DNA of 33,593 nucleotides from Candidatus Nomurabacteria bacterium. Lineage in GTDB: Bacteria; Patescibacteriota; Minisyncoccia; Phycocordibacterales; UBA9973. The stretch lies in the NCBI GenBank assembly GCA_027347985.1, contig DAIEQH010000003.1, positions 1-33,593 on the forward strand. Direction: 5' to 3'. Positions within the stretch are counted from its first letter, which is position 1. Each line of letters begins with the position of its first letter. Both the position numbers and the translations under genes were made by a program. Under the pieces are notes generated by a model. That model was not told the origin of the DNA, did no database searches, and saw only the letters and a list, made by a program, of their open reading frames with translations. Below are positions 1,861-19,531 of the stretch, one piece after another.

Positions 1861-1861
1861 A

Positions 1862-2170
1862 TTATTTTTTATTAATAAACTTTTTAAATTCTTCAAGCGT
1901 TGGATATGCGCTGGTTTTAACGATTTTTCCTTCGTAAGTTGTGATTGGCAATATTTTTAGTTGCTGTTCTTGGATTAGTTTTATAACCTTAGGATTTTCT
2001 TTGAATTTTTGTGGGCTTTGAGTGATAAGATAACGTTCAACCTCTATACCCAACTTTTTAACTTCCGCTAATGTGTCTTGTAAGCTAATAAGCGTTTGGT
2101 CTGGGTTAGGACCGCATACGCCAGTTGAACAACACATTGGTGGATCATAAATGACAATTTTTTTACTCAT
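1862..2170 (-). CDS. arsD: Arsenic metallochaperone ArsD
   Basis: N-terminal YDPPMCCSTGVCGP motif; adjacent to arsA. Confidence 0.95.
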   Translation of the reverse strand: MSKKIVIYDPPMCCSTGVCGPNPDQTLISLQDTLAEVKKLGIEVERYLITQSPQKFKENPKVIKLIQEQQLKILPITTYEGKIVKTSAYPTLEEFKKFINKK

Positions 2171-2191
2171 ATTGTTTGTTTAAATTAATGC

Positions 2192-2494
2192 TTAGCATTT
2201 TAATTTCTTTTCTTTTGTTATAATAATTTTTGTCAATAATTTATTTAATTCTTTTATCCTTTCTCTGTTAAGCGAATAATAAATCCATTTGCCTTCTCTG
2301 CGGTTTACGATCAAACCACCTTGCCGTAAAATTCCCAAATGGTGCGACACTAGATTTTGCGGAAGTTTTAATTCTTCGAATATTTCACAAACACATTTAT
2401 CTCCCGAAGCCAGAAATAGAACAATCCCAAGCCTTGTATTGTCGCTCAAGGCTTTTAACGGTTCCAGGAAAGTTTTTTGTTTCTTATTGTTCAT
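2192..2494 (-). CDS. arsR: ArsR/SmtB family metalloregulator
   Basis: KALSDNTRL, CVCEI metal box, VSHHLGILRQGGLI..RREGKWIYYSL winged helix. Confidence 0.93.
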   Translation of the reverse strand: MNNKKQKTFLEPLKALSDNTRLGIVLFLASGDKCVCEIFEELKLPQNLVSHHLGILRQGGLIVNRREGKWIYYSLNRERIKELNKLLTKIIITKEKKLKC

Positions 2495-2502
2495 AACAAC
2501 AC

Positions 2503-2547
2503 ATCAAATTATATTGATATGATATCATGTGGAAAGTAGATTGTAAA
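2503..2547 (-). promoter_or_regulatory. ars promoter and ArsR-type operator
   Basis: Minus strand TTTACA (2547-2542), 17-nt spacer, TATCAT (2524-2519) with extended TG. The palindrome ATCAA-N6-TTGAT at 2503-2518 covers the expected start site. Confidence 0.75.
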
Positions 2548-2562
2548 GAAGTATTTTAATTT

Positions 2563-3894
2563 TTATGGGTTAAGCGATATTTTCTTATTATTCAACAATA
2601 TTCTACTTTTTAAGCATCCCAATAATTCTCTCTTCTGAATATCTTCTCCCTCCTGTAATACATACTTAGCATAACTCCGTATATCGACACCAGATATATT
2701 CACCTTCTCTTTGGTACCCAGAAAAAATTTCTGCATTTTAGTAAATTTCTCAACATCAGCCTTAATTTTTTGTTTGATTTCAATTTCGTTGATATTAAGA
2801 TTTTCTATTAGATTTTCAAACTGTTTAATTAATTCTTTTTCTTCAATGTAGCCACATTTACAATTACCGTCTTTCGCTTTACTACAACCATAGTAGACAT
2901 AACGATGAGTGTTTCCATTTTTATGCTTCTTAAACTTCTCGCAAGCCGAAATGCCAGAATCACATAAACCACAAGCCATCATTTTGGTAAAGGCAAATTC
3001 TTTTCCTTCGGATCTCAAGATCTGGCTTTTAACTTGTTCTTGTACTAAATCGTAAAGTTCTTTAGTAATGATCGGTTCATGTTTGCCTGTGTACCAATTA
3101 CCACTGTTTCTGGGATATTCAAAAATTCCATAGTAAAAAGTATTACTCAATGTTCTATATAAATTACCCAAGCTAAGATGTTTCTTACCGGCGGCCGTTT
3201 TGAAATTGAGGTCAAATCTTAGCCAGTTGTAAACCTTCCTACCACTCCATTTTTCGTAAGCAACTTTCTCAAAGATTTTTTTGATAATGTGACCTCTCTC
3301 GGGATCTATAATTACCTGACACTTCCTATCCATCATTTTTTGATTTAAATATCCGGTTGGAGCTACGCCAGGCCATAGTCCCATTTCAACTCGGGTGCGT
3401 AATCCTCTTTTTACATTCACGCTTTTATTATCATTTTCTAGTTTAGCTTGCGAACAGAGAATCATCAAAAGAAACTTTTCATTTGGTGAATTTTTAAAGT
3501 GCTGTCCGTAAGTGCGAATCTCCATTAATAACTTTTGATCCATGAGGTCAACAATACTTCCTAAATCGCCAGCGTTTCTACTTAATCTATCGGGTGCCCA
3601 GGTCAGAATTCCATTAAATCTTCCTCGTCGTATATCTTCAAGAATTTCTTTGTAAACAGGTCGTTGCCCTGACTCTTTTGCCGAGTGAGATTCTCGCCTA
3701 ATTTCTACAACTTCCAATCCTTCTCTTTCAGCCATGCTAAGCATTTCTTTGATCTGGGAATCAATAGACAAAACTTGGCGTTCTTCTGATTCAGTACTTT
3801 TTCGTGCATACAAAACGTATTTAATTTTTATAGTTGGAGCAATAGCCATAGTGCCTATCAATCCAACATCTGCTTGTTTTTCCATGCCCGTCAC
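2563..3894 (-). CDS. Large serine recombinase (resolvase, recombinase and zinc-ribbon domains)
   Basis: YARKS catalytic motif, ESHSAK, DRLSRN, PTGY, HEPII, CGLC...YYGC..C. The start may be the ATG at 3885. Confidence 0.93.
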   Translation of the reverse strand: MTGMEKQADVGLIGTMAIAPTIKIKYVLYARKSTESEERQVLSIDSQIKEMLSMAEREGLEVVEIRRESHSAKESGQRPVYKEILEDIRRGRFNGILTWAPDRLSRNAGDLGSIVDLMDQKLLMEIRTYGQHFKNSPNEKFLLMILCSQAKLENDNKSVNVKRGLRTRVEMGLWPGVAPTGYLNQKMMDRKCQVIIDPERGHIIKKIFEKVAYEKWSGRKVYNWLRFDLNFKTAAGKKHLSLGNLYRTLSNTFYYGIFEYPRNSGNWYTGKHEPIITKELYDLVQEQVKSQILRSEGKEFAFTKMMACGLCDSGISACEKFKKHKNGNTHRYVYYGCSKAKDGNCKCGYIEEKELIKQFENLIENLNINEIEIKQKIKADVEKFTKMQKFFLGTKEKVNISGVDIRSYAKYVLQEGEDIQKRELLGCLKSRILLNNKKISLNP

Positions 3895-4078
3895 GATATC
3901 AGACTGGTTGGGTAAGTAAAGCTAGCATCGTTGGCAACGTGTTGGTAACTTTCCTTAACAAAATAGCTAGTCTGCGATAGGGTTGGGTTGGAATAATAGC
4001 TTAAAAAGTGCTATTATTTCTTTACAAATTAATATTATTCAAAAGGCCTAACCCCTTGGAATTTCTGAGGATATGGTC

Positions 4079-4223
4079 TAAAAACTCGCTACAAGATAAA
4101 GAACCCTTCGTCAGGGTACTTGTAGCGAGTCATAATCGGAAACGGTTATGGGTGGGTCGCAAGATCCATCGCCCGGCGGAGGGCTCTTTGTCTATCTGCT
4201 AGGGTATTAAAAACTCGCTACAA
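4079..4223 (+). ncRNA. Candidate structured RNA (cis-regulatory leader or small RNA), family not recognised
   Basis: Long stem 4095-4117/4171-4192 encloses two abutting 8-bp hairpins with GAAA and GCAA tetraloops. Several G-U pairs work only on the + strand. Confidence 0.7.
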
Positions 4224-4226
4224 AAT

Positions 4227-4817
4227 ATGTATAAAAGAATTCCAGTGATAAAACTCACTGGAACTGAACAATTCAAGAATGTAGGAAACAAAAATTTCTC
4301 TGTACTTGAGTTTTGGCGTTATGGATTTTCAAATCTTAATTCAAATGTTCTACGGGGAGCGCTAGCAGAATTTATTGTAGAAAATGCCTTAAGAAAAAAT
4401 AATGAAATTGATATTCGTAACCCATGGGGCGACTCGGATGTAATTTCTCCAAACGGAAAAAAGATTGAAGTGAAATGCTGTTCGTATATTCAGGATTGGG
4501 ATCAAAATGATTTTTCAAAAATTCTTTGGAGTGGTCTTAAAGCTAAGAGTTTATACTGGTCATCAGCAGTTAGTGCTTTTCCAAGAAGTCCTGCTGATTT
4601 TAAATCAGATATTTATGTACTGGCTCTTTTCAAGCACCAAGATCATACGACGCTCGATATACTTGATATGGACCAGTGGTGTTTTTGGGTACTGGCGAAA
4701 GAAAAAATAAAAGAGATAACAAAAAATGGGAACAGTATATCGCTTGTTAAACTTCAAAAATTTAATCTCGAGCCAATATCTTTTAATCTTCTATCAGAGG
4801 CTATATTGAGCATCTAA
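4227..4817 (+). CDS. Hypothetical protein, probable PD-(D/E)XK restriction-endonuclease-like fold
   Basis: RGALAEFIV helix followed by WGDSDV-ISPNGKK-IEVK. Confidence 0.6.
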   Translation: MYKRIPVIKLTGTEQFKNVGNKNFSVLEFWRYGFSNLNSNVLRGALAEFIVENALRKNNEIDIRNPWGDSDVISPNGKKIEVKCCSYIQDWDQNDFSKILWSGLKAKSLYWSSAVSAFPRSPADFKSDIYVLALFKHQDHTTLDILDMDQWCFWVLAKEKIKEITKNGNSISLVKLQKFNLEPISFNLLSEAILSI

Positions 4818-4822
4818 TTATT

Positions 4823-6274
4823 TTATAGTGCGTCAAATCTTGGTCCTTTAAATACAATTCCTCTGGCACCCCTACGACAATCTTTTTCTGCAATCTTTCC
4901 AAGAAGCAAAGAAAAAGCGTCAGCTAGGTCATCATGTTTTTCAATGCCAAAATTAAGTAATTGTTGGATAAGTATTTCCGCTCCTTTTTTGGGAAACAAT
5001 ACTTTTCCAGACTCTACCAGAAAACTAATAGATGTCAGTCGTCCGTACTTGTCATTGATAGATCGTACTCCCTCAGCAAGGTAATTTTGATGTTTAAGGT
5101 GATTTACAAAGGAAATTTGAAAACCGTTATCTTCAATAAAAAGCTTACTTCGACCAAGCGAAGCCGATATGGCTTTTGCTTGTTCAAGTATCTCCTGTGT
5201 TGTAAGTCTTTTGTTAATAATGTTGGGTAGAATATATACTCGTAGGTTCTCTCCGCGACTGCATACCTTAGCTGAAACCATGGCCGTATAATCTGCGTGG
5301 TCTTTAAGAGAAATGGCTAAATCAATACCAGTAGCGTAATAGCTATGAAAGCTATCGGGTGGTAGTAAATCATAATACTGGATCCATTCTCGTTTTATGG
5401 GTTGGTCTTCATTGCTGACGATATTAAGAAGGTATTCGCGTTGCCAAGCAATTTCATTTCCTGCTTTTCGTTTTTCTCTTTCAATATCTTCCATTGTAGG
5501 ATATTTACCGGGCCACAAGATTTGACCGTCTTTGATAAGCGAATACTCCTTAAAAATTCCATCTATCATTTTATTTTCAATATTTTCCTTGATACGCATG
5601 AGTAACGAATCTTCATGTAGGAGATTCCCGGCAATAACAAATCTGGTATTTTTCTGACCGATAGGGATAACTTCTCCGGTCCACCACTCGTAGGTTTTGT
5701 TCCTGCCTTCCCGTGTTCTTGTGGATTCTATATTTTCCAGATCGTCTCCAATCACCAGATCAGGGCGGTGTTGATTGTGTCTCATTCCACGAATACTCTG
5801 CTCGGAAGAAGCGGCGGTAATTCGGGCGTTTAATTTTGAAAACACTAAAGTCGAGGAACCCCATTCGTTAGACACCTCGCGAAATGGTCCAAGGTCATTC
5901 TTAAGAAGCACATTACTTTCAAGTTCGTTACGCAAGCTCATCATGAATTGTTTTGCTTGAGCCTGGGTTTGAGCAAGAATGAGGACGAATTTTTTCTGTT
6001 GTTTCCCGAGGATTGCCCAAATGGGGTAGGAGGTAGTCAGAATAGTAGATTTACTACTGCCACGGAAACTTACAATATAGAAGTTTCCAAGACTTTCGTT
6101 TTGGGTAAGATTGAATATTTCGTTGTGAAATAGAGCTGTCGGAGATGTGACATAATGGGCGAAATAGAAGTGAAAGAAATACCAGTGGCTATCTTTAGTT
6201 ATCGCCGTTCTTACTTTTTTGTCCTTTAGCATTTTTTCCACTAATTTTTGCTGAATCATTTGAATTGTTTTCAT
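4823..6274 (-). CDS. Phage terminase large subunit-like protein
   Basis: Walker A variant SFRGSSKST, Walker B LVIGDDLE, WQREY linker, RNase H-like GIDLA...HDDLADA. ATG 6274 is preferred over the track start at 6331. Confidence 0.88.
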   Translation of the reverse strand: MKTIQMIQQKLVEKMLKDKKVRTAITKDSHWYFFHFYFAHYVTSPTALFHNEIFNLTQNESLGNFYIVSFRGSSKSTILTTSYPIWAILGKQQKKFVLILAQTQAQAKQFMMSLRNELESNVLLKNDLGPFREVSNEWGSSTLVFSKLNARITAASSEQSIRGMRHNQHRPDLVIGDDLENIESTRTREGRNKTYEWWTGEVIPIGQKNTRFVIAGNLLHEDSLLMRIKENIENKMIDGIFKEYSLIKDGQILWPGKYPTMEDIEREKRKAGNEIAWQREYLLNIVSNEDQPIKREWIQYYDLLPPDSFHSYYATGIDLAISLKDHADYTAMVSAKVCSRGENLRVYILPNIINKRLTTQEILEQAKAISASLGRSKLFIEDNGFQISFVNHLKHQNYLAEGVRSINDKYGRLTSISFLVESGKVLFPKKGAEILIQQLLNFGIEKHDDLADAFSLLLGKIAEKDCRRGARGIVFKGPRFDAL

Positions 6275-6665
6275 ATTTATTTTGATTATCGCTAATAATA
6301 GTTGTGCCAAGTCTAAGGGCTTCACGCACAATTTTCTTTTGTTCAGGGGTTAATTCTTCCGTATCTTCCTTGGTGGTAATTTCTATCGTATTTTTGTAAT
6401 TGTCATTTCGATGTTTTAACCAGAAGCTGATGGCGGGGTAATTTTTTTCCTTAATAAGGGTTAATAACTGGCTCTCGCTCATGTCGTTTACCAGAGCGAC
6501 ACCGTCAACCAAAGCCTGATCCATTTCTTTAGAAAATTTAGGATCCTCTTTTTTCCAACGGTAAACACTATTTCTAGATACTCCGGTTTTTTCACAGGCA
6601 ACTTGCACGATTGGAACTTTTCTGAGTTCCGCGAAGAAACCATCTTGTAATTTATTTTTCTTCAT
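6195..6665 (-). CDS. HTH protein, probable terminase small subunit-like
   Basis: ACEKTGVSRNSVYRWKKEDPKF HTH and AISFWLK motif; lies directly upstream of terL. Confidence 0.7.
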   Translation of the reverse strand: MKKNKLQDGFFAELRKVPIVQVACEKTGVSRNSVYRWKKEDPKFSKEMDQALVDGVALVNDMSESQLLTLIKEKNYPAISFWLKHRNDNYKNTIEITTKEDTEELTPEQKKIVREALRLGTTIISDNQNKYENNSNDSAKISGKNAKGQKSKNGDN

Positions 6666-7935
6666 GGATTATTTTTACTTTATTACCAGTAAGCTTCTCG
6701 TACCGACGAATCACGAGATCGCAAAATATTGGCTCAAGTTCTATTCCATACACACGGCGATTAAGTTGTTCTCCGGCAACGAGTGTACTACCGGAACCAA
6801 GAAAACTGTCGAGAATAATTTCGCCAAGCCTGGTACAACGACGAATGGCCTTGTTGTGAAGTTGGGGAGGTTTTGAAGTTGCATGCTGTTCTTGATTTTT
6901 ACCAGATAGGCGTTTTTCCATCCATACACTTAAATGGTCGGATGCTTCATCTAGAAGATTGTTGCCGGTGGTCATTTCTTTATTCATAACCTCGTTCAGA
7001 TTTTGAATATTGGGAGCAATATACGGTCGTCCGCGAATTCCATAGGTGCATGGCTCATAACACTTGTTAAATGCAACCGTAGGAACAGGGTTCTGAGAAT
7101 TTTTTAACCATAAGCACACACGTTTGTTTTCAATACCAAGTTCACGGTAAAGTTCTTGGATTAATCCGATAAAAATTTGATCCGACCAGTAGAATATATG
7201 TGTATCTTTTTTGGCTACCAGAAGAGCGTTCACCATGCTTTTACGTAGAAATTCCTTGTAAGCCTTGTCTGTTCGATTGTCTATAACATTTCCACCGTAC
7301 TGTGCTTTTCCACCGATGCCTCCATTGTAATCGAGTGAAATATTATACGGCGGATCGTTATATATCATGGAAACTTTTTCATTTCCAAGCAGTCTTTTGA
7401 GAGCCAGTGGATCTTCAGCACTACCGCAAATTAATTTATGCGGACCCATAATAATCAGGTCGCCTAGTTTAGTTTTTGGAATCTTGATTTTGGCAAGCTC
7501 GGCTTTTTCGTCAAAATCATCATCTTCCGCTTCCAAATTTTCAGTCCATAATTTTGACAGATCAGCATCAGGAAAACCAACATCGCTTAATAGGTCCATT
7601 TGAAAAGATTTTAATTTCTCAAAGTCCCATTCGCCGTCGTTTAAATTACTTTCTAGAGCAATTTTTTCTCGTTCTTCATTGGAAAGTCTACGGTTAGGGG
7701 TAAGCACATTCACTTCCGTAATTCCGAGTTTAGTGAGAGCGGCCTTGCGTTGATTGCCGGACAAAATAGTATTGTCCTGGTCGACTACAATCACACTGTG
7801 AAAACCACGATCCTTAATTCGTTCCATTAATTGAGATAATTTCGCTTTTCCAATCTTGCGTGGGTTTTCTTTCCATACCTTCAAATCTTTAACTTTTTTA
7901 ACTCCCGAACTCCACACCAATTTTATTTTAGACAT
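6652..7935 (-). CDS. ParB-like N-terminal domain fused to N6-adenine/N4-cytosine DNA methyltransferase
   Basis: NPRK..VDQDNTILSGNQR ParB/Srx-like region; DPPY motif IV precedes DSFLGSGST motif I (beta order); HATSKP. Confidence 0.9.
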   Translation of the reverse strand: MSKIKLVWSSGVKKVKDLKVWKENPRKIGKAKLSQLMERIKDRGFHSVIVVDQDNTILSGNQRKAALTKLGITEVNVLTPNRRLSNEEREKIALESNLNDGEWDFEKLKSFQMDLLSDVGFPDADLSKLWTENLEAEDDDFDEKAELAKIKIPKTKLGDLIIMGPHKLICGSAEDPLALKRLLGNEKVSMIYNDPPYNISLDYNGGIGGKAQYGGNVIDNRTDKAYKEFLRKSMVNALLVAKKDTHIFYWSDQIFIGLIQELYRELGIENKRVCLWLKNSQNPVPTVAFNKCYEPCTYGIRGRPYIAPNIQNLNEVMNKEMTTGNNLLDEASDHLSVWMEKRLSGKNQEQHATSKPPQLHNKAIRRCTRLGEIILDSFLGSGSTLVAGEQLNRRVYGIELEPIFCDLVIRRYEKLTGNKVKIIHEEK

Positions 7936-8345
7936 AATTTTTTGCTGTTAAACTAATAAAAGCACCTCCAATTCTAAAATGGTTTAATGCTTTTAAAAAT
8001 TCAGCAACAAAAAAAAGACTGAATCAAAAAAACATAAAGCCAATTTAGTTAGGTTTACATTTCCTTAATCCAATCTTCTTTCGACACAATAGTATTTTGA
8101 GACAGTGCTCGATCTATTGTGTCGCAGTTGTTTTGATTAGACCTAAATTAATTAACCATTTATACTTTTGAATGAGTATGGTTGCCCAGCACTTTAGATC
8201 AATTAATTTTGGAATATTTTAAGTTAAAAAGGTACTAACCTAATAATATCACGTAGTAAAAAGGAGTCAACCGACTGTGGAATTAATCATATGTGGTTAC
8301 ACAATAAAGAGTGGAAAAATCAAGGGAAAATGATAAAATAATCTT

Positions 8346-11300
8346 ATGTCTAGCAAAGACAACATTAATGAATCAGAAAAACCTCTTGATAACGCAAAAG
8401 GAGTATTGAAATTTTCAAGTGATCGCCAAAAAAAGATATGGCGTGCGTTGGCAAAGTTACATCCAAAATTTGGCAAAAAAATTGCTAGTATTTTCGAGGG
8501 CATAATACTTGCGTTAAACGACAATAACCCTGAAAAAATTTCTATTGTTTCTCACTTAGCAAGAGAACTTACTGAAGTTCTACCTATATACATTTCCGGT
8601 ATTCCAATAAGACAAAAGAGAGCGACTGACGATGAAATCAAAAAAGGTTTGAACAATATATTAAAGATGCTAAAAAGCGGGAAGAAATCTGATGAAAAAA
8701 TAAAAGATGTTGTTGAGAATCTCATAGCACAAATACCAGAACAAAAATCTCAACGTGAACAATTAAGAAAAATTGTTGACTCACATAAGGTTCTCGGATC
8801 TCGCCCATCTTATCTTAACGATGAATTTATAAAGCAATGGATGATAGTAAATAGATATTTTTTAAAATACTGTCATCATAGTGAATTGAAAAACTTACGT
8901 GACGATCCATTTTCTGAGGCAGAACTTAATGCAAATTTGAATACCTTTGAAGTGTTGATCTATAGAATTTTAGTAAAGGAACCGTTTTTTGACACTATGA
9001 AAGAGATAGATAGGCTTATGGGCATAGATAATCCCATAGAAAGAGACGCAGACGAGTTAATGAGACACATAGTAGAACCACAACATCGCAGATATTTTTT
9101 TGAGAGATGCGATAATCCAAATTGGCTAAACCTTTTGAACAAGAGAAATGCCTTTTCTTCCCCACAAGAACCTCTAAAAAAAGACGGATACATACAGTTT
9201 ATTCCATGGCCAGAATCAAAATATTTAGTGAGGGTAGCACATAAAAAACCCTTAGAGGTTTATAAAATAATAGAAAAATTAACATCTGATAACCAGACGG
9301 TATTGTACGACTTTTTAAAAGCCGCATTGGATTCACCTGTAAACATTTCCGCTATGTATGCAAATTTAATTGTAAAAAAGAAATGGCTACAAGGTCCATA
9401 TAATTTAAGTTTGCCAGATCAAGTTGCAGATCTAATGGAAAAACTTGCAAAAGGTAAAAAAGGGAAAGAGGCACTTTATCTTGCCAATGAACTATTTAGG
9501 TTAAGAATAGACAAGCAACGTGCCCCTAAAGATCGAGATGAATTGAGATTTTTCCATCCAGATGCAAAACCTTACTACGACGAATGGCAATTCAAAGAGA
9601 TTGTCGGTAAAAAAACGAAGGAACTTGCTAAAATAAAACCAAAAGAACTATTCAATACATACATTCAAAAACTAAAAGAAGCCATCGAACTTGAAAAACG
9701 AGGGAATAAAGATGGTAATTTCTATGAATACTCACACATTTGGAGACCAAATTTATCTATATCAAGAAACAAAACAGAGGATGCAAAAAATATTTTACTT
9801 GATGGTATTATTCAACTAATAGAACAGTATAAAAATGATCCTGTAATACTAAAACAATTTTCCGTTGTCCTTCGTAAATGTTCTTATGCTCTTTTCAGAA
9901 GAATTGAGATGTTTTTGTATAAGTTTGATTCTAATATTTTTACCAAAGAGTCAGAAAAGATATTAAGAAATAGAAGAATAATAATCGCTTACAATTTGAG
10001 ACGTGAATATCTACCGCTACTTGAAATCATGTACGACAAAATCTCTACCTCTTCAAAGAAATATATTTTAAAAGTCATAGAAGGAGGCCCTGATTTCAAG
10101 AAACCCAAAGATTATACAGACGAACAATTTGAGAGGATGACATCCAATTGGAAATCTCTCTACCTATCTCCCATAAAAGACAAACTTTCAAAGGGGTATT
10201 CAGATAAATATAGTAAAATAATTAAAAAATATGATAAACCAATTGACGATGATGGCGAAATGACAGTTTGGGATGGTGGTAAAAGTCCAATTTCGGCTGA
10301 AGATCTTTCGAAATTAGACGCTGATGAAACCCTGAAATACTTAGCCGATTACAAAATGCCAGATGATCCTTTTGGAAGGCACTCCTCTTCTGGTTTGGGC
10401 ATGATATTTTCCGGCCTTGTTGCAGAAAATCCAGAAAAATATGTTCCAACAGCGAAAAACTTTTTTGAAAGAAAAACTCGTCCAATATATTTTTATCATT
10501 TAATACATGGATTAAGAGAATCATTGGTAAAGAAAAAGTGTTTCAGTTGGAAACCAATTATAGAACTATGTTATAGAATCGTAGTAAAAAAAGAATATAA
10601 TTCAGAGCCTGTAAATAACGACGAACAAGACTGGAATTCTGTAAGACTTGCCATTGCCGATTTCTTAGGAAGAGCATTGGGGGATGATACTTGCGAAATC
10701 CCTACCATATTTAGAAAAGAAATATGGGATATAGTATCAAATCTAGCGGAAGATCAGGACCCCACCCCTGAGTATGAACATAAAGATAGCGAAGGCGGCT
10801 TAGATCCTATGACTCTAGCAATAAATACAGTGCGTGGAGAAGCCATGCATGCAGTTGTAAATTATGGTCTTTGGATTGCTCGAAATCTTCCAGATAAATC
10901 TATTGAGGTAAAGATGCCAGAAGAGATGGAAGAATTACTCAATAAGCATTTAGATATTAAACAAGATCCCTCATTGGCCATCCGTTCAGTGTATGGATGG
11001 AGATTACCCAATTTACACTATTTAAATAAACCTTGGATAGAAAAAAATAAAGAAAAGATTTTTGCAAAAGACTCGCCGGATTATCTACTGGCAGCATGGG
11101 AAGGATATTTAGCCAATAATATTCTTAAGGAAGTATTTTCTATACTTAAGCAACAATATTATGACTTTATTCCATATCTAGGGACTCTTGAAAAGAAAGG
11201 GTATCGTGCGGCAGATATAGATCAACGGTTTCCACAACATGTGGCAGTTATTTATGCAAATGAACCAGAGCATGAAGATTTTGTAGATTATTTTTTTAAA

Positions 11301-11816
11301 ACAGCTCCTGTAAAAACTCGCGCAGAAGCAATAAATTTTATCGGCCGAGTAATATTAAGACAACTTGAAGCATTCCCAAACAAAGAAGAAGTTAAAAAAA
11401 GGTTGGGCAATTTATGGGATAAAAGAATTTCTCTTTCTGAAGAACAAACTGAAACGGAAGAACTAAAAGAATTTGGTTGGTGGTTTAAAGTAAGCCCATT
11501 CTCTAAAAAAGAGACTTTGGAACGAACTATAAAAACCCTCAAACTCATTAAAGGTGTTATTAACGTACCCTACGAAATTGCAGAAGAACTCAAAATATAT
11601 GCTAAGGAATTGCCAGTTGAAACTATCACCTTGCTTGATTTAATTGTTAGAGCAGAGAGAGAGAATTACGAGCATCTTTATAAAAAGGAAGAGTATAGAG
11701 AAGTTATAAAGATAGTAAAAGCTACCGGGAACAAAACAGCAAACAAGATTGTTAAAGATCTTATTAATTATTTAGGGTCAATCGGGTTGATTGATGATTT
11801 CAGAGACCTTCTCTAA
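8346..11816 (+). CDS. Large helical hypothetical protein (1156 aa), candidate defence sensor/effector
   Basis: Long intact ORF without P-loop. N-terminal SHLARE...RYFLKYCHH is HEPN-like. Preceded by TGaTAAAAT 6 nt before the ATG. Confidence 0.6.
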   Translation: MSSKDNINESEKPLDNAKGVLKFSSDRQKKIWRALAKLHPKFGKKIASIFEGIILALNDNNPEKISIVSHLARELTEVLPIYISGIPIRQKRATDDEIKKGLNNILKMLKSGKKSDEKIKDVVENLIAQIPEQKSQREQLRKIVDSHKVLGSRPSYLNDEFIKQWMIVNRYFLKYCHHSELKNLRDDPFSEAELNANLNTFEVLIYRILVKEPFFDTMKEIDRLMGIDNPIERDADELMRHIVEPQHRRYFFERCDNPNWLNLLNKRNAFSSPQEPLKKDGYIQFIPWPESKYLVRVAHKKPLEVYKIIEKLTSDNQTVLYDFLKAALDSPVNISAMYANLIVKKKWLQGPYNLSLPDQVADLMEKLAKGKKGKEALYLANELFRLRIDKQRAPKDRDELRFFHPDAKPYYDEWQFKEIVGKKTKELAKIKPKELFNTYIQKLKEAIELEKRGNKDGNFYEYSHIWRPNLSISRNKTEDAKNILLDGIIQLIEQYKNDPVILKQFSVVLRKCSYALFRRIEMFLYKFDSNIFTKESEKILRNRRIIIAYNLRREYLPLLEIMYDKISTSSKKYILKVIEGGPDFKKPKDYTDEQFERMTSNWKSLYLSPIKDKLSKGYSDKYSKIIKKYDKPIDDDGEMTVWDGGKSPISAEDLSKLDADETLKYLADYKMPDDPFGRHSSSGLGMIFSGLVAENPEKYVPTAKNFFERKTRPIYFYHLIHGLRESLVKKKCFSWKPIIELCYRIVVKKEYNSEPVNNDEQDWNSVRLAIADFLGRALGDDTCEIPTIFRKEIWDIVSNLAEDQDPTPEYEHKDSEGGLDPMTLAINTVRGEAMHAVVNYGLWIARNLPDKSIEVKMPEEMEELLNKHLDIKQDPSLAIRSVYGWRLPNLHYLNKPWIEKNKEKIFAKDSPDYLLAAWEGYLANNILKEVFSILKQQYYDFIPYLGTLEKKGYRAADIDQRFPQHVAVIYANEPEHEDFVDYFFKTAPVKTRAEAINFIGRVILRQLEAFPNKEEVKKRLGNLWDKRISLSEEQTETEELKEFGWWFKVSPFSKKETLERTIKTLKLIKGVINVPYEIAEELKIYAKELPVETITLLDLIVRAERENYEHLYKKEEYREVIKIVKATGNKTANKIVKDLINYLGSIGLIDDFRDLL

Positions 11817-11820
11817 TTTT

Positions 11821-13584
11821 ATGGCAATAAATACAAAAATAGTTACACATCTTACTTACAAAGAACTCTTTGATTCTTTTGAAAAAAACGGAACTGTTTT
11901 TCCAATAAGTATCTTGAAGGCAAGCGAAGATATTGAAACACAAATAGAATATCTGCTGACTAACATGAATCCCGTTGAAATGACACAGTTCAGTTCTTTT
12001 CTTAACATGATATGCCAGACAAGAGATACTGATAAAACCATGATTAGAGGCATATCGCTATTGGAAGAAACCGGGATTATTCAAAAAGGAAGAGGCTTCT
12101 CAAATAAGATAGTTTTTCATAGAGAGAACTTATTAAACCTGATCGGGCAAATACTTTCTAAAAAATTAAATGGTAAAGATCAATTAACAGGACCTGGACA
12201 TACGGCGAACCAGAAAAAATACACAGAGGCTATTTTATTAAATAATGATCTGGCGAGCATGGAAGCTGAAGCAAACGGCACGAAAAATGGGATTTTTATC
12301 CGTGATTATTTTATAAGAGAATATCCCCACTATTACCTTCCTGATATTGCTAGGCTTATGTATGGGCATAGGATAGTTCGTTATAGATATTGTTTTGAAC
12401 AATTGCTTCCAAACTTAGACAAAGTAAATATAGACGAAATAAATAAAGGAATTAATGCCTTTGAACAAAATTCAGGAGTAACACTTCAGGAATATATAAA
12501 AGTTCTTAATAGCCTTTATGCTTGGTTTTTTGAGATCCCTTTTCAGAACGAGAAAAATCCACCTGCTCTAGGTACTCAAAAATTTGGTTTCGATTTTCAA
12601 CATTTGAGTTCATTTTACATACAAGCATCTTTGTTTAAGCAAGATCCGTCATTTCTTAAAGCAATTAGTCATTTATCAAAAGATATTAATGCACTAAGGT
12701 CTGCATTGGAACAAGAGGATCAAAGGCCGAGGGATCCAATAACTGGATACAATAAATATATTCGGGTGTTTTTTGATAACCCTGTATTTAAAATATCAGA
12801 AGATTTTTACTGTATCATAGACCTAAAATTTATTATTGAGAACGTATGCGGCGGATTACTTTGGAGAATTAAAAGTGAGGGAAATTTGCAGAATTTTAAA
12901 TCAGCTTATGGTCGTCTTTTAGAAAAGTATTTCCAATTTATAATTCAGAATATTTTTAAGAATACTAAGGTCAGCTTTGGGGAAACTGCTGGAGCTGACG
13001 CCGTAATCGAAACCGATGATTGCATCTTCGTTATGGAATTTACTACGGAATATTATAGACTGTCTTCTTTGTATAACCCAACGGCTGATGGTTTTCTAGA
13101 TGACGCTTATCGTATTTTGTTCAACACAGGTAAGGATGATCCTAGAGCAAGAAATAAAGATGATAAAGGAAAATTAATTAAGCTTAATCAATACATTGAA
13201 GATAATAAAAGTAAGGGTAAAAAAATTATCCCAGTTATCGTTACCGAAAACTTTTTAGGTAATCATGATTTATTTAATGAATTTGATAATTTCTGCAATT
13301 CAGAAATAGCAACAAAAAATCTTACAAACTTAGAAGGGATACCCCCAATGTTTCTATGTTTAGATGATCTTGAGACTTTTTGGGGTCTGTTTGATCCAAA
13401 GGACGCGGTTAAGGGATTTGTGGGCTTTAATGACTACTGGGTATCAAAAGAAAAGGAGTCCTTATTCCATAATCCTTCCTCTGGAATGTGTAAATTTATT
13501 GAGGAAATAAATAATAAAGAACCTAGAATAAATAATCATGAATTTGCTGATTTTTTCTCACCCAAGCAAACATTTAAGGAATAA
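11821..13584 (+). CDS. Hypothetical protein with C-terminal degenerate PD-(D/E)XK/NERD-like domain
   Basis: AYGRLLEKY...GADAVIETDDCIFVMEFTT. The ATG at 11821 lies 4 nt after the upstream stop. Confidence 0.55.
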   Translation: MAINTKIVTHLTYKELFDSFEKNGTVFPISILKASEDIETQIEYLLTNMNPVEMTQFSSFLNMICQTRDTDKTMIRGISLLEETGIIQKGRGFSNKIVFHRENLLNLIGQILSKKLNGKDQLTGPGHTANQKKYTEAILLNNDLASMEAEANGTKNGIFIRDYFIREYPHYYLPDIARLMYGHRIVRYRYCFEQLLPNLDKVNIDEINKGINAFEQNSGVTLQEYIKVLNSLYAWFFEIPFQNEKNPPALGTQKFGFDFQHLSSFYIQASLFKQDPSFLKAISHLSKDINALRSALEQEDQRPRDPITGYNKYIRVFFDNPVFKISEDFYCIIDLKFIIENVCGGLLWRIKSEGNLQNFKSAYGRLLEKYFQFIIQNIFKNTKVSFGETAGADAVIETDDCIFVMEFTTEYYRLSSLYNPTADGFLDDAYRILFNTGKDDPRARNKDDKGKLIKLNQYIEDNKSKGKKIIPVIVTENFLGNHDLFNEFDNFCNSEIATKNLTNLEGIPPMFLCLDDLETFWGLFDPKDAVKGFVGFNDYWVSKEKESLFHNPSSGMCKFIEEINNKEPRINNHEFADFFSPKQTFKE

Positions 13585-13617
13585 TAGGGTAAGCCTGGGC
13601 AAAAGGTTTAATAAAAA

Positions 13618-14067
13618 ATGTTGGAACTTATAGATAGAAATTTAAAAATGATTAACATAGAACACGCAAGAGATTTTATACAAAAGCATCAAGATCAAGT
13701 TACTGATCTTTTTATTACCTATCAAATGATAGAAATGATGTTTTTTCTTAAACTTCACTTACCTGGGATATCAGAGATAGAAAACAGAGAAGATTATTTA
13801 GAGGGAGTAAATAAACAAATTAATTCAAAAACTTTTGGGAAATTAAAAAAAGTTTATTTAGAAAAATATCCCAATGACAAATATCAGTTGATTTTTGATA
13901 TGGAAGTTGTCGCAATACAAAGAAATAGTTTTATGCATTCTTTTTGCATGATTTTAGTCTTATGGGAAAATCAAGAAGAGATGAATACATGGGGAAAATT
14001 TCTTTTAGATGACTTTACAAAACAAGCTCATAATTTACTGGAAAAAGTATATGAATTACCAAATTAG
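13618..14067 (+). CDS. Small HEPN-like protein
   Basis: QMIE helix, KTFGKL and RNSFMH (Rx4H). Alternative start at 13648. Confidence 0.5.
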   Translation: MLELIDRNLKMINIEHARDFIQKHQDQVTDLFITYQMIEMMFFLKLHLPGISEIENREDYLEGVNKQINSKTFGKLKKVYLEKYPNDKYQLIFDMEVVAIQRNSFMHSFCMILVLWENQEEMNTWGKFLLDDFTKQAHNLLEKVYELPN

Positions 14068-14108
14068 GTAATATAATCATCTTCGTTTCTTTGTGTTATA
14101 ATAAAAAT

Positions 14109-15248
14109 ATGGAAAACAATATCTTAAATTTATTTAATGAATTTCTAAAAAATTATGATGTGGAATCTAAGGATGCATTGTGGTCAGAACAGAGCTTAAA
14201 ATTTAGAAATTTTTGGCAAGATAAAATTTTCTCTCATTCCAAAGATGAGCTTAATGATACAGAGACTGATGAAATTATTAGGATATTAGATAGGAACGGT
14301 AGAGGTAATACAAAAGAGAGTGAGGCAGTGGCAAAAGCCATGATTGCTCAAGGTGCTTGGAGAAGAATGTTTAATGAACTAAAAAACAAACAACCATTAC
14401 ACGAATGTCTAGACAGAATATTTAAAAGCTCTGGGGATGAAAGAGAGAAGTTAATTAATCAACTATATAAATTAAATGAAGGAAATCGCAATAATTTAAC
14501 TGGACCAAGTGGCAACGCAATCAATGATATGATTTTTGCCTGGGACCCATCTTCTAATCTCAGCATTATATCCTTAAACGATCGCAAGAAAGTTCTTGAA
14601 TATTTTGGATTTGAAAATCGTACAGTTTTTGAAAAAGATTCAATTGGAGAAAAAATTGTTAAATCAAATGAAGATATTATTAAAGGTTTTAAGTCTTTAA
14701 GTATATATGGATCACCAAGAACAGTAAGCACATTTTTGTATTCAATCAATGTACAATCTCTTTGGAAAACTGAATCTGAAAAAGAGTTTACAAGCGTAAG
14801 TGAAGAAAAACCATCTCAAATAATAGGTGAAAATGAATCTTCGGATCAGACTTTGTTTTATATGGAAAAAGAACTTGAAAATTTTTTAATCAAAAACTGG
14901 GAAAAAACTGAATTGGGTAAAAAATATGATTTGATTGAAGAAGATGGAAAATTCAGCCAGCAATACCCAACTGGAGTTGGCCCAATAGATATTTTAGTAA
15001 AAGACAAAAAAGATGGAACATATATCGTGATTGAATTAAAGAGAAATCAAACAAGTGACGATACTATAGGTCAATTAGCTAGATATATGGGGTGGCTTAA
15101 AGAAAATAAAACAAACGGAAAAACAGTAAAAGGAATAATTATTACAGGAGGATATGATGAAAGACTTTATTATGCATCCCAAATGCTAATTGGTTGTGAA
15201 ATATACATATATCAGGTTGATTTCAAATTAAAAGAATTTAAAGAATAG
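14109..15248 (+). CDS. Endonuclease with C-terminal NucS/DUF91-like PD-(D/E)XK domain and an unknown N-terminal domain
   Basis: EKELENFL...GPIDILVKD...VIELKR...DDTIGQLARYMGW. ATG 14109 follows TGtTATAAT. Confidence 0.8.
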   Translation: MENNILNLFNEFLKNYDVESKDALWSEQSLKFRNFWQDKIFSHSKDELNDTETDEIIRILDRNGRGNTKESEAVAKAMIAQGAWRRMFNELKNKQPLHECLDRIFKSSGDEREKLINQLYKLNEGNRNNLTGPSGNAINDMIFAWDPSSNLSIISLNDRKKVLEYFGFENRTVFEKDSIGEKIVKSNEDIIKGFKSLSIYGSPRTVSTFLYSINVQSLWKTESEKEFTSVSEEKPSQIIGENESSDQTLFYMEKELENFLIKNWEKTELGKKYDLIEEDGKFSQQYPTGVGPIDILVKDKKDGTYIVIELKRNQTSDDTIGQLARYMGWLKENKTNGKTVKGIIITGGYDERLYYASQMLIGCEIYIYQVDFKLKEFKE

Positions 15249-15407
15249 TGACAATCAACTGCAACTTTTGTATCTGATTTTATGTCACTTTTGTCACTTT
15301 CTAGGGTGCTCGAGACGCGTCGTTTTGGTATAATAAAATTATTAGAAATAACATTACTGGGCAAGGAACTAAAAGGTTCTAGCTCGAGAACGCCCGCAGA
15401 GATATTT

Positions 15408-16373
15408 TTATTCCAAAATTAGTTTTTTGAATTCCTCTACCATGGGGACTTGTTCTGGTTCTAGACCATATTCTAGGGCTAGATAATAGGCAGTCCAGTC
15501 GGCCAAGAGAAGGGAAGAGAAAATTTTATGCCAGACATTTTCGTTTTTTATTTCTATCGTTTCAACTTTTAAATTGCGGTCTTTATATAATTTTTCCAAG
15601 ACTTGCATCCTTTTTAGTATTTTTGGATTGTCTCCCATATCTTTCAAAATAATAAAATAGAATTTATTACTTAATTCTTTGGTTGAATCTACCACATCAA
15701 AACCCGTCATCTCATTGTGATTTAATTCAGGTAAGACATTATGAAAAGCGGGGATTTTTCCTGTTTCATTAAATTTTATTTTCCAAATTTCTGCCAAAGA
15801 GGAATTATGATTTGAAGCATAGATAACAGGAACATAATTTTTCAATTTCTTTGCGAAACTTTTTCCAGCCTCCTCATAATCAAGTGGATTTAAAGTTGCT
15901 TCTAGGCCACTTGTTTCTTTTAATGCACTTTCTTCACCCATTACTTTCAAGAGTGCTTTAATAGAAAGGCCTAAAGCCATACGAGGTTGAAGCCTCACAT
16001 TTGGCATTTCTATATACGGAGTATTATTTTCCTTAGCTAGAGATAATAATTTACCACCAGCGACAACTACAACTATGTCTAGGTTTTTTTCTTTCGCCTC
16101 TAAGTAAGCATTAATTACTTCTTCTGTATTTCCAGAATAAGAACTTAAAATGACAAGTTTATTTTTTAATGCCTCATCTCCTAGTGGCAAACAATAATCA
16201 TGACGAATAATGATATCAATTTTGGGATTCCAAGTTTTTAGAATTTGAGCTGCCAAAGCAGAGCCACCCATACCAACCAAGATAAACTCTTTTTTGGCAA
16301 CAAATTTGTCGAGATTTTTAATCTCTGGTTCATATGAAAACTGTTTATTGAAGTTTTTTATTGATTCGTACAT
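15408..16373 (-). CDS. Bifunctional phosphoglucose/phosphomannose isomerase (SIS domains)
   Basis: GMGGS, SYSGNTEE, QPR, NETGK and PELNHNE motifs. Confidence 0.9.
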   Translation of the reverse strand: MYESIKNFNKQFSYEPEIKNLDKFVAKKEFILVGMGGSALAAQILKTWNPKIDIIIRHDYCLPLGDEALKNKLVILSSYSGNTEEVINAYLEAKEKNLDIVVVVAGGKLLSLAKENNTPYIEMPNVRLQPRMALGLSIKALLKVMGEESALKETSGLEATLNPLDYEEAGKSFAKKLKNYVPVIYASNHNSSLAEIWKIKFNETGKIPAFHNVLPELNHNEMTGFDVVDSTKELSNKFYFIILKDMGDNPKILKRMQVLEKLYKDRNLKVETIEIKNENVWHKIFSSLLLADWTAYYLALEYGLEPEQVPMVEEFKKLILE

Positions 16374-16377
16374 TACT

Positions 16378-16998
16378 TTATTTTAGCATGTTTTTATTTT
16401 TTAATTTATTGTAGAGAAAGGAAACAATTGTTGGCAAGAATGAAATAAACACTATGCCCAATAATATTGGTAGTAAATATGTATCAATATTTGGAATCTG
16501 TTGCCCTAGAAAATATCCAAGTAAAGTAATACCCGTGGCCCAAATCAATCCACCGAGAATATTGTATGAGATGAAAGTTTTGTAATGCATTTTGCCGACG
16601 CCAGCGAGTATTGGTATAAAAGTACGTACGACAGGGATAAAACGTGCTAAGACGATAGCTTTTTTGCCATGCTCTCTATAAAAATCCTCAGCTTCAGCAA
16701 TGTGTTTTCTTTTAAAGAAAAAAGAATCATCGTGCGAAAATATTTTTGGTCCAACTTTAAAACCAAATAAATATCCGATTTGGTCGCCCAAAACGGCGGC
16801 GAAAGTAACGACTAAAACCAGTAAAGCAATATTGAAATAACCTTGAGAAGCAAGCAACCCTGCAGAAAAGAGGAGAGTATCTCCCGGAAGAAAAAAACCA
16901 AAGAATAAGCCAGATTCAGCAAATATAATAAAGAAAATGCCGAAATAACCTATTGCTCTAATCAATATTGGTAAATCAATATTTAATATAGATTCCAT
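16378..16998 (-). CDS. dedA: DedA family membrane protein
   Basis: FAESGLFFGFFLPGDTLL, GDQIGY and ARFIPVVRTF motifs. Confidence 0.93.
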   Translation of the reverse strand: MESILNIDLPILIRAIGYFGIFFIIFAESGLFFGFFLPGDTLLFSAGLLASQGYFNIALLVLVVTFAAVLGDQIGYLFGFKVGPKIFSHDDSFFFKRKHIAEAEDFYREHGKKAIVLARFIPVVRTFIPILAGVGKMHYKTFISYNILGGLIWATGITLLGYFLGQQIPNIDTYLLPILLGIVFISFLPTIVSFLYNKLKNKNMLK

Positions 16999-17066
16999 CC
17001 CATTAGAAATTTTTAATTAATAATTTTTGTCTCGTTTGCGAAATTTCTAACGGGACAAGTAATTTA
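16996..17066 (-). repeat. Stop-to-start inverted-repeat element, copy 1 (dsbA-dedA)
   Basis: Sense strand reads TAA attacttg TCCCGTTAGAAATTT ...N28... AAATTTCTAATGGGA TG. Confidence 0.9.
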
Positions 17067-17822: not shown

Positions 17823-17961
17823 AAAAATTTATTGTATAAGTTTGTAATGCTTAAGTATAACCTGTAGTGAAATTTTTAGCAAAAATTCTGCTATAAAAAT
17901 GTTAAAAGCCAAGCCTTTAACATTTTTTAAAGTTCGATTTTGTTGTGCTATAATAGCCCTT

Positions 17962-18459: not shown

Positions 18460-18460
18460 A

Positions 18461-19483: not shown

Positions 19484-19484
19484 T

Positions 19485-19529
19485 CTGTCAAACATCTCTG
19501 TCAAACACCCGATGTTTGACATTTGACAG
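19485..19529. repeat. Nested TGTCAAAC palindrome between convergent genes (REP-like or bidirectional terminator)
   Basis: tgtcaaaca-cccga-tgtttgaca (19499-19521) is flanked by ctgtcaaa (19485-19492) and tttgacag (19522-19529). Confidence 0.6.
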
Positions 19530-19531
19530 GC

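Follow-up and report, generated by a model that had tools for sequence, protein, structure and literature searches.

Integrative islands joining a phage packaging operon to a large serine recombinase in Patescibacteria

PICIs borrow the large terminase subunit (TerL) of their helper phage, while cfPICIs encode both their own large and small (TerS) terminase subunits together with capsid, portal, protease and head-tail connector, and steal only tails. Here, we analyzed a stretch of 33,593 nucleotides (“the window”, nearly an entire contig) from an ultra-small bacterium of the Patescibacteria/CPR, in which a 12.8 kb mobile island occupies positions 2563–15397. This island is one copy of a widespread integrative island family of these bacteria. 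Like PICIs and SaPIs, it is small and integrative, has no virion genes, encodes its own TerS for redirecting packaging, presumably needs a helper phage and carries defence or accessory cargo. It differs from them in its full TerL, its large serine recombinase as integrase, the ParB-methyltransferase (ParB-MTase) that starts its packaging operon and its Patescibacteria host, and neither a pri-rep replication module nor an Stl/AlpA-type regulator was found in the window copy. In contrast to both PICIs and P4, the island also has no detected replication initiator or primase. It resembles cfPICIs in encoding both terminase subunits, but capsid, portal, protease and connector genes are absent from the window and from all annotated loci. 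Finally, SCC cassettes, which use Ccr recombinases, likewise sit in the chromosome and carry resistance or defence genes, and CcrB is the best NCBIfam model for the island recombinase (6e-33); its 114 bits nonetheless fall far below the cut-off of 900, so that it is not a Ccr equivalog, and SCC elements are not known to have a terminase.

The limits of the island were set by comparison with a locus in another genome (L171), which carries the same island and cargo in a different flank, a sign of mobility. Homology between the two spans window positions 2579 to 15397, ending within ~15 nt of the recombinase stop codon, in agreement with the extent originally predicted. Within these limits lie the recombinase, a LOOT leader RNA, a nuclease-like gene, TerL, TerS, the ParB-MTase, four defence-like cargo genes and a terminal DNA element. 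The core is read on the minus strand from 7935 to 2563 in the order ParB-MTase, TerS, TerL and then recombinase, all co-directional, with variable cargo in between; it is a phage packaging-initiation operon that ends exactly where the portal gene would come and is joined instead to a large serine recombinase. Downstream of the recombinase, an arsR-arsD-arsA operon (16–2494, minus strand, Pfam) is not shared with the L171 island, yet its linkage to the recombinase is kept in a second copy from the same assembly (C51, DNA 85% identical). This operon may be either extra island cargo or chromosomal flank, and the left island limit depends on which. No tRNA gene was found in the window, whose contig stops 15 nt beyond arsA, so that a tRNA may lie further out. 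In relatives, a tRNA has its 3′ end towards the recombinase at a distance of 90–1600 nt, and one related island is flanked by a 21-nt repeat of the 3′ end of tRNA-Trp. Public contigs of four runs yielded no clean example of a circular junction or an empty site.

The packaging operon had been predicted as an intact MTase-terS-terL unit, with its motifs present, pointing towards a serine recombinase, and its genes were indeed found intact at the expected positions. Its first gene (6652–7935, minus strand) encodes a fusion of a ParB domain and an N6-N4 DNA methyltransferase, matching phrog_498 (2e-78), the ParB-like phrog_620 (7.7e-21, residues 13–144) and N6_N4_Mtase (2e-24). Directly upstream of TerL, a small protein with an N-terminal HTH (6195–6665, minus strand) matches seven PHROG terS families (best 1.6e-8). 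The top structural match of its predicted model (mean pLDDT 69.9) is Sf6 TerS, with Z 8.4 and an rmsd of 7.8 over 98 aligned residues (next row, Z 5.3), while Foldseek returned no significant match and a sequence search of the PDB was empty. From these weak sequence matches and one high-rmsd structural match, we assign it as TerS with moderate confidence.

TerL itself (4823–6331, minus strand) matches phrog_38 (9.5e-79) and no Pfam family at 0.01; its start codon is tentative, and the alignments of its relatives begin near residue 20. A profile of 32 island TerLs matches the T7 maturase/terminase ATPase in the PDB (1.4e-8). As judged from sequence, the protein combines an N-terminal Walker A/B ATPase (Walker A, F89-R90-G-x-x-K94-S95-T; Walker B, D196-D197-x-E199) with a C-terminal RNase-H-like nuclease bearing an acidic triad (D337, E400, D467/D468/D471). 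Each of these motif residues is kept in ≥95% of 56 island copies, and all ATPase and nuclease motifs are among the 48 residues conserved at this level. Nearly all copies have an uninterrupted reading frame (one internal stop at 6 of 58 places, and a few fragments). Relaxed selection, which would have spoken against the original prediction, was not seen: dN/dS was 0.03–0.09 in 7 of 12 pairs, i.e., those with an estimable dS. TerL is thus under purifying selection, with its catalytic residues intact.

At the proximal island end, the large serine recombinase (2563–3894, minus strand) was identified by Pfam and PHROGs. Its Resolvase (8e-20), Recombinase (1e-11) and Zn_ribbon_recom (9e-7) domains are all above cut-offs, and it matches the phrog_95 integrase family (2.6e-60). 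The translation contains the motif YARKSTESEERQ, and a YARKST motif is seen in it. Between recombinase and TerL, on the opposite strand, a LOOT RNA (Rfam RF03000; 4045–4170, plus strand) forms the 5′ leader of a 196-aa cargo gene. The match is full length (model positions 1–121) and reaches 83 bits (E 1e-14), where the gathering score is 46.4; a model of our own, R1, scored it at 88 bits. Downstream (4208–4229, plus strand), the 5′ arm of hairpin 2 of this RNA recurs, with an exact 16-nt identity (4079–4094 = 4208–4223) of a length reached in 0 of 200 shuffles, and this repeat ends 3 nt before the ATG (4227). Such an arm repeat precedes an ATG in 10 of 13 LOOT copies, even as the sequence of the arm varies among them. 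The 196-aa protein (4227–4817, plus strand) is nuclease-like, with T4 endonuclease IV and restriction endonucleases as look-alikes. It has no match in Pfam, PHROGs or PADLOC, its atlas look-alikes score 0.97, and PF26887 occurs on 46–51% of the top-cluster members, which we treat as a lead only; identity to its L171 counterpart is 75%.

Divergently from the packaging operon, and separated from it by an intergenic region (7936–8345) that shares 82% identity with L171 across 419 nt and holds no complete ORF of ≥40 aa, runs a four-gene defence-like cargo block (8346–15248, plus strand; products of 1156, 597, 149 and 385 aa). The first product (8346–11816) matches PADLOC Dsr1 at 8e-49 over profile positions 292–1205 of 1227 only, and Pfam detects no SIR2 domain in it, although Dsr1 carries one at its N-terminus; we therefore label it “Dsr1-like (C-terminal region only)”. 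The 597-aa and 149-aa proteins could not be matched to any family, and the 385-aa protein is a NucS_C/PD-(D/E)XK protein (PADLOC PDC-S02, 1.9e-44). The block keeps its order beside the core in L171, at identities of 74, 82, 97 and 91%. The distal island end is formed by a conserved terminal DNA element (15283–15397), which 27 other island loci also have at their MTase-distal end. It contains two GTGACA units in tandem and a GTTACA-N6-TGTAAC palindrome. No covariation in favour of an RNA fold was found, and similarity begins ~10 nt past the stop codon of the flanking gene in both the window and L171.

Next, we evaluated how widely this architecture recurs. A TerL homologue was present in 51 of 401 sampled genomes of the phylum, about one sampled species in eight. 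Across 41 loci (the window and 40 fetched), the MTase protein cluster was represented in 40 and the recombinase in 37, in the same direction, with 0–13 variable genes between TerL and recombinase. At least 538 relatives were found in a species collection; among the best 80 of these, the ParB-MTase fusion was upstream in 74, 76 had TerS between MTase and TerL, and in 54 the recombinase followed downstream, directly adjacent in 26. The closest TerL homologues (44–63% identity) all belong to capsid-less islands, and the window TerL falls within the island radiation, where it groups with three other loci (L021, L023 and L027; SH-aLRT 96–99). Consistent with mobility, TerL similarity does not track the relatedness of the hosts: identity reaches 63% with a relative from the same phylum only and 53% with a genome of the same order. 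Between the window and L171, TerL has been swapped, being 52% identical as opposed to 94% for the recombinase. Cargo slots are also swappable, and cargo across islands includes restriction-modification, superinfection exclusion (Sie/Ltp-like), nucleases, retroelements, metal resistance and defence genes. Many relatives carry LexA/S24-like genes upstream, while no repressor gene was found in the window copy. Our literature searches retrieved no description of a capsid-less terminase island family.

Searches of the island ORFs (2563–15300) with Pfam, PHROGs, NCBIfam and PADLOC gave no family of a portal, capsid, tail, primase or relaxase, as originally predicted, and no portal, capsid or tail family occurred among 105 (Pfam), 43 (PHROGs) and 132 (PHROGs) proteins of relatives’ loci. 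Likewise, Pfam, PHROGs and NCBIfam revealed no replication initiator, primase, helicase-initiator or Rep among the island ORFs, three of which had no family, and no capsid-size remodelling gene was recognized in the island. The same approach does detect structural genes: three TerLs from the same phylum (21–27% identity) have portal and major head genes after them, and in GenBank phages the portal comes after TerL, whereas no portal or major capsid gene stands beside the island terminase, which sets it apart from a Caudoviricetes prophage.

The nearest IMG/VR contigs were the same islands. Beyond these, a clade of temperate phages (L183–L198) with TerLs 35–41% identical to that of the island shares its gene order up to TerL and then continues with portal (phrog_2662/12), protease and major head (phrog_10) genes, where the islands have cargo and the serine recombinase. 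Among 11 contigs at this identity, portal families follow TerL in 10 and phrog_10 in 3; these IMG/VR records are metagenome predictions rather than particle evidence. In these control loci, portal genes are seen after terL, in line with the arrangement that the original prediction took as normal for prophages. Some of the 11 also have a ParB-MTase upstream of TerL, including a true phage (L191), in which the MTase matches phrog_498 (1e-125) and ParB families. TerLs from these phages and from the islands form one group that excludes other phage TerLs (SH-aLRT 100). The near-phage clade is the likely source of the packaging module and a candidate helper lineage, although no helper phage as such was found.

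On balance, we consider it somewhat probable that the islands are mobilized by the recombinase, package themselves into helper capsids with their own terminase, and carry cargo that benefits the host. Specifically, the recombinase would excise and integrate the island, and joining of the recombinase end to the conserved terminal element would create the attachment site of a circle. Upon infection by a helper of the related clade (candidate gene order ParB-MTase, small gene, TerL, portal, protease, capsid), island TerS would bind a pac site on the island and recruit its own TerL, which we infer would cut the island DNA and pump it into the helper’s empty capsids, allowing the island to spread at the helper’s expense. 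The host may in turn gain from the LOOT-led nuclease-like gene, the Dsr1-like four-gene block and perhaps arsenic resistance.

Other readings of the same locus were weighed against this one. The terminase pair and ParB-MTase might instead be a defence that sabotages phage packaging, by cutting concatemers or occupying procapsids, with the recombinase only moving the module and transfer in capsids incidental or absent. The mostly defence and superinfection-exclusion cargo (Sie/Ltp-like, restriction-modification, nucleases, Dsr1-like and PDC-S02), the lack of a replication module, and a TerL allele swap that would fit a phage arms race are consistent with such interference. However, TerS and the ATPase and nuclease of TerL are conserved jointly, an intact translocating ATPase would be superfluous for interference alone, and no PADLOC model matches TerL or TerS, so we regard it as unlikely. 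It is in any case compatible with a satellite, since known satellites combine packaging and interference. A decayed prophage, i.e., a leftover left arm that has lost its structural genes, would account for a module that shares homology and synteny with the first genes of the morphogenesis operon in real phages. Yet the same truncation point and recombinase partner recur in >100 loci of many families, and the mostly intact TerL frames, low dN/dS and conserved catalytic residues refute decay as a general explanation, while the 35–63% divergence among copies excludes recent copies of a single decaying prophage. The original prediction is thereby partly supported: the recurrence of a recombinase-terL-terS-MTase core that lacks structural genes and is under purifying selection, which it proposed as its test, is seen, and decay, which it opposed, is barely tenable, whereas its two alternatives, a satellite with its own packaging motor and a repurposed terminase, would both fit.

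A virus split in two, in which capsid and tail genes elsewhere in the genome serve the island terminase as in a gene-transfer agent, appears very improbable. The source genome is 87% complete in 133 contigs, and such genes could be absent from the assembly; no structural gene was found elsewhere on the contig, and the portal and HK97 capsid families searched for in the genome (PF04860, PF05133 and PF05065, all with working controls, and phrog_12) were all blank, although these are few and divergent families could escape them; phrog_332 matched nothing either, here or in its control, and is given no weight. Furthermore, the phrog_12 portal occurred in just 1 of 45 island-bearing genomes, mostly 95–100% complete, and there on a separate contig. 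Alternatively, the island might work in place, with no need for excision or replication, by headful packaging from its pac site into the DNA past the recombinase, moving resistance genes as in lateral transduction, which has been reported for PICIs (PMC12829572). The missing replication module and the orientation of all core genes towards the recombinase end would fit, as would the arsRDA operon, linked to the recombinase in two copies. Metal-resistance genes (P-type ATPase, CsoR-like) also follow the recombinase within six genes in 11 of 61 loci but lie upstream of the MTase in only 1 of 102, a difference overstated by the interrelatedness of the loci. Because pac site and packaging direction are both putative, and the resistance genes might be no more than cargo that lies between the recombinase and a remoter attachment site (recombinase and tRNA are 1–1.6 kb apart in some relatives), we judge this decidedly improbable.

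Returning to self-packaging satellites, a bolder version, distinctly unlikely in our estimate, would make the islands replication-less hyperparasites with a complete terminase, packaging themselves from the integrated pac site, plus resistance genes beyond the recombinase, into capsids of related phages, and exchanging TerL alleles to fit the portals of circulating helpers. If so, they would be a main route by which genes are exchanged among bacteria that have almost no prophages or plasmids. More generally, a satellite with both terminase subunits and no capsid gene would bridge PICIs, which have TerS only, and cfPICIs, which have the whole head, and would make testable which part of the motor selects the DNA entering a capsid. 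The near-phage clade offers a concrete candidate helper, and the TerL swap between near-identical islands a concrete hypothesis of motor-portal matching. Much of bacterial diversity belongs to the Patescibacteria, and to our knowledge their gene exchange and anti-phage defence are little understood; an island family at its observed frequency in sampled genomes would rank among the major vehicles of their accessory genome.

The packaging genes of the window form a minus-strand operon, i.e., a ParB-domain/N6-N4 DNA methyltransferase (6652-7935), a small HTH protein matching seven PHROG small-terminase families (TerS, 6195-6665) and a large terminase (TerL, 4823-6331; phrog_38, 9.5e-79). Beyond TerL lie a 196-aa gene on the opposite, plus strand (4227-4817) with a LOOT RNA in front of it (4045-4170, plus strand), and a large serine recombinase with Resolvase, Recombinase and zinc-ribbon domains (2563-3894, minus strand). 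Divergent from the methyltransferase is a plus-strand block of four cargo genes, which opens with a Dsr1-like protein (PADLOC, 8e-49, profile positions 292-1205 only; no SIR2 domain by Pfam), continues with 597-aa and 149-aa proteins without a family match, and ends with a 385-aa NucS_C/PD-(D/E)XK protein of the candidate defence family PDC-S02 (1.9e-44). These four genes form a fixed block, found at 8346-15248 here and at 1021-7917 in L171, a relative, and may represent an undescribed multi-gene defence system. No ORF of the island matched portal, capsid, tail, primase or relaxase families, and this island copy held no repressor gene and no recognised replication module. The original prediction of a capsid-less integrative element was right on every testable point, both for the genes it named and for the virion, primase and relaxase families it described as missing.

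The island's limits came from L171, a member of the species collection with the same island and the same cargo. DNA similarity between the two runs from 2579 to 15247 and then through a further non-coding stretch up to 15397, while the flanks beyond both ends are unrelated (a LigA-like C-terminus in L171 versus a PGI gene in the window); the resulting segment, 2563-15397, has essentially the coordinates first proposed (2563..15300). Two same-genus genomes gave similarity only from 16489 onward, with scrambled synteny and no ends, and the PGI gene (15408-16373) was not found in them. The window covers nearly all of its contig, C68, in a genome of 0.65 Mb in 133 contigs that is 87% complete.

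The island closes with a terminal element, its last 115 nt (15283-15397), which 27 other islands share at their methyltransferase-distal end. As this element contains GTGACA twice in tandem together with the palindrome GTTACA-N6-TGTAAC, and its RNA fold showed 0 compensatory pairs, it looks more like a DNA site bound by a protein than like an RNA. The window contained no convincing pair of flanking direct repeats and no tRNA gene. When tRNA 3' repeats were checked in 15 relatives, a repeat spanning the island was seen in L055 only (21 nt, copies separated by ~14 kb); a further five short matches, of 13-25 nt, lay near the tRNA or inside other tRNA genes. ARAGORN also predicted a tRNA-Ser bearing the anticodon ACT, placed back to back with a tRNA-Ser(GCT), both on contig C46 of the window's own genome (943-1187) and in the same-genus locus L078 (8799-9101); ACT is an unusual anticodon, and a pseudo-tRNA may lie behind the call. 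In L120, L119 and L127, a second serine recombinase lies upstream of the terminal element or repressor side, and in L120 the terminal element starts about where the second recombinase gene is estimated to end; these islands may stand in tandem.

Four public sequencing runs from a single study, labelled mine drainage metagenome, contain the window's sequence and may be its source; no RNA run is listed as containing it. In the contigs (not reads) of these runs there was no clean circular junction or empty site. A back-joint from 14700 to 2237 had a depth of 2.8 in one run and falls inside genes, and was distrusted; a skip from 14160 to 15320 had only 21 nt on one side. Contigs across 2348-8144 had about half the depth of those across 15970-20000, a difference that cannot be used to rank parts of the region.

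Next, we evaluated how widely this arrangement recurs. Of 401 genomes sampled across the phylum, 51 held a TerL homologue, mostly at 44-63% identity and with an open frame. For 40 of these places, ~9 kb on each side was subjected to crude ORF calling and clustering, with the window as the 41st locus: the methyltransferase cluster was present in 40 of the 41 loci and the recombinase in 37. The order was constant and on a single strand, i.e., methyltransferase, sometimes a second methyltransferase, TerS, TerL, 0-13 variable genes and recombinase, and five more distant TerL places (35-39% identity) had the same architecture. A profile scan of the species collection returned at least 538 relatives. 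Among the best 80, at least 4 of which are, to judge by their length, contigs of the first set, names were mostly Patescibacteria (Paceibacterota, Saccharibacteria, Gracilibacteria, Komeilibacteria, Berkelbacteria and others). Of these 80, 74 had the methyltransferase and 76 had TerS on the upstream side; the recombinase was downstream in 54 and immediately adjacent in 26. Typical islands also occurred under the titles Bdellovibrionales, Gammaproteobacteria, Flavobacteriaceae, Methanoregula or Omnitrophota (L105, L109, L112, L116, L118, L119, L123, L127, L145, L154, L158, L159, L161, L164 and L166), titles that could reflect mistakes of binning or naming instead of a broader host range. Many relatives carry a LexA/S24-type repressor gene divergent from the packaging operon, and the closest IMG/VR records were the same islands.

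The catalytic residues of the terminase are conserved. Across 56 island TerLs, 48 residues were ≥95% conserved, including Walker A (F89-R90-G-x-x-K94-S95-T), Walker B (D196-D197-x-E199), R181-G182, and the acidic nuclease residues D337, E400 and D467/D468/D471; a profile of 32 island TerLs matched the T7 terminase ATPase in the PDB. Nei-Gojobori dN/dS for TerL was 0.03-0.09 in the 7 of 12 pairs with estimable dS, and 0.05 and 0.04 in the two pairs with dS <1; between the window TerL and its nearest relatives, synonymous sites were saturated. For TerS, comparison with PDB sequences gave only noise, and a model built from a 22-sequence alignment (mean pLDDT 69.9) had no Foldseek match in the PDB at E ≤0.001. 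In a structural comparison with 48,161 chains, the top match of this model was the Sf6 small terminase, aligned over 98 residues with Z 8.4 and rmsd 7.8; the second-best row scored three Z units lower.

No virion gene family was matched in the island loci scanned. Neither the 105 proteins scanned with Pfam (52 cluster representatives plus 53 singletons between TerL and recombinase) nor those scanned with PHROGs (43 proteins, plus 132 ORFs downstream of TerL in 80 further loci) included a match to portal, capsid, scaffold or tail families; two island proteins touched endolysin or tape-measure families, by a peptidase domain only. The same tools detect structural genes where these are present: three same-phylum TerLs at 21-27% identity were followed by portal and major head genes, and TerL was followed by portal in two GenBank phages. 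Among eleven IMG/VR contigs with TerLs at 35-41% identity, portal families came after TerL in 10 (phrog_2662/12 in 7), and 3 contained the major head family phrog_10. A ParB-methyltransferase lay upstream of TerL in two of the near-phage contigs (complete in L191, partial in L187), with other methyltransferase genes upstream in several more. From this synteny, the island module is, as judged by sequence, the first three genes of the near-phage head operon, ending where portal would begin. The reading as a decayed prophage, which the original prediction had disfavoured, is rejected.

GenBank phage TerLs, from Mu-like, Mushu-like and some Bacillus phages, reached at most 29% identity. TerLs of the near-phage clade and of the islands grouped against all other phage TerLs (SH-aLRT 100). 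FastTree and a quick IQ-TREE search placed the near-phage clade inside the island radiation; such nesting is unproven, as a tree holding the islands together was better by 12.65 lnL (p-AU 0.76), and both placements, sister to the islands or nested within them, stand. Between the window and L171, protein identity is 94% for the recombinase, 75% for the 196-aa protein, 76% for TerS and 64% for the methyltransferase, and 74%, 82%, 97% and 91% for the Dsr1-like, 597-aa, 149-aa and 385-aa cargo proteins. TerL is only 52% identical, against 74-97% for recombinase and cargo, making its body the least conserved part, and DNA similarity is lost between ~4988 and ~6107, within that body. Taken together, this indicates that the TerL allele was replaced by recombination between island lineages. 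TerL similarity did not track host kinship. Seven loci (L028, L037, L061, L062, L064, L152 and L160) carried two full-length TerL genes in tandem, with each copy in a different subclade of the TerL tree.

The LOOT RNA (RF03000; described in PMC5737381) is full length in the window, at 83 bits, and its family is typed by Rfam as an sRNA gene. Among 80 genomes, LOOT occurred in 18 of the 45 with islands versus 6 of the 35 others, and lay within 13 kb of TerL in 14 of those 18. The following gene was co-directional with the RNA in all 12 island copies examined. Hairpin 2 has its 5' arm repeated 37-56 nt downstream, immediately ahead of an ATG, in 10 of 13 copies; the window's repeat is 16 nt long (4079-4094 and 4208-4223) and precedes the ATG at 4227. 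Since this repeat is kept even though the arm sequence varies by copy, we suggest that LOOT may act in cis as a two-state leader of the 196-aa gene rather than as a trans sRNA; its 3' arm would have two alternative partners, one within LOOT and one across the start region of this nuclease-like gene. On contig C49 of the same genome (L090, 1102-4373), another large serine recombinase (29% identical to that of the window), without a terminase, has a LOOT RNA on the opposite strand, 1.6 kb upstream, so that LOOT accompanies other recombinase elements too.

An arsR-arsD-arsA operon (16-2494, minus strand) adjoins the recombinase end and is absent from L171; the readings that it is part of the island, or not, both stand. 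Another contig of the same genome (C51, L089) repeats arsA-arsD-arsR-recombinase at 4420-8488 with 85% DNA identity to the window and terminates in the first half of a LOOT RNA, at the contig's very end. The stretch past arsA encodes a YlbF-like protein, an M23 peptidase, a P-type ATPase, a zinc-ribbon protein and a DsbA-like protein. This copy may represent another island, or it may come from a co-binned strain.

The gene content around the packaging module bears on rival, less probable readings of the island. It could package in situ, with resistance genes downstream of the recombinase carried along: of 61 loci, 11 (L025, L046, L049, L051, L104, L110, L121, L124, L141, L149 and L158) carried heavy-metal P-type ATPase or CsoR-like repressor genes within 6 genes of the recombinase on its downstream side, versus 1 of 102 with metal-resistance genes upstream of the methyltransferase, and in the window the arsenic operon holds this downstream position. 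The counted loci are mutually related, and the contrast is only suggestive. It could instead serve an interference-only defence role; the variable slots hold restriction-modification systems, helicase-nucleases, Ltp-like and Sie-like superinfection-exclusion genes and staphylococcal-nuclease-like genes, as well as diversity-generating retroelement parts (reverse transcriptase, bAvd), NUDIX, Maf and Ham1 enzymes, glycosyltransferases and metal ATPases. For a split virus, the relevant evidence is from whole genomes: a phrog_12 portal was present in 2 of 80, one being a control and the other the only one of the 45 island-bearing genomes, where it lay on a different contig from the island, and PF04860, PF05133 and PF05065 had no match in the window's own genome.

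Full-text literature searches, outside which the oral TM7 prophage tables lay, returned no description of such islands. An oral TM7 study (10.1101/2020.04.29.069278) lists prophage groups, and a 2017 Curr Biol paper is cited in PMC6509639 for a Saccharibacteria ‘phage’ without identifiable capsid, which, as cited there, could be an excised relative and may count as an earlier description.

Overall, what is established is the architecture, sequence conservation with purifying selection, the lack of virion genes in the loci scanned, homology and synteny with the start of a phage head operon, and mobility of the island between unrelated flanks. On this basis we lean towards a phage satellite that depends on a helper and brings its own TerS and TerL, by a mechanism that we infer from gene content. 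Specifically, the recombinase would excise the island, so that the end carrying its gene becomes linked to the terminal element; TerS would recognise a pac site on the island; and the island TerL would dock on the portal of a helper. The near-phage clade is the obvious candidate for both the source of these islands and their helper.
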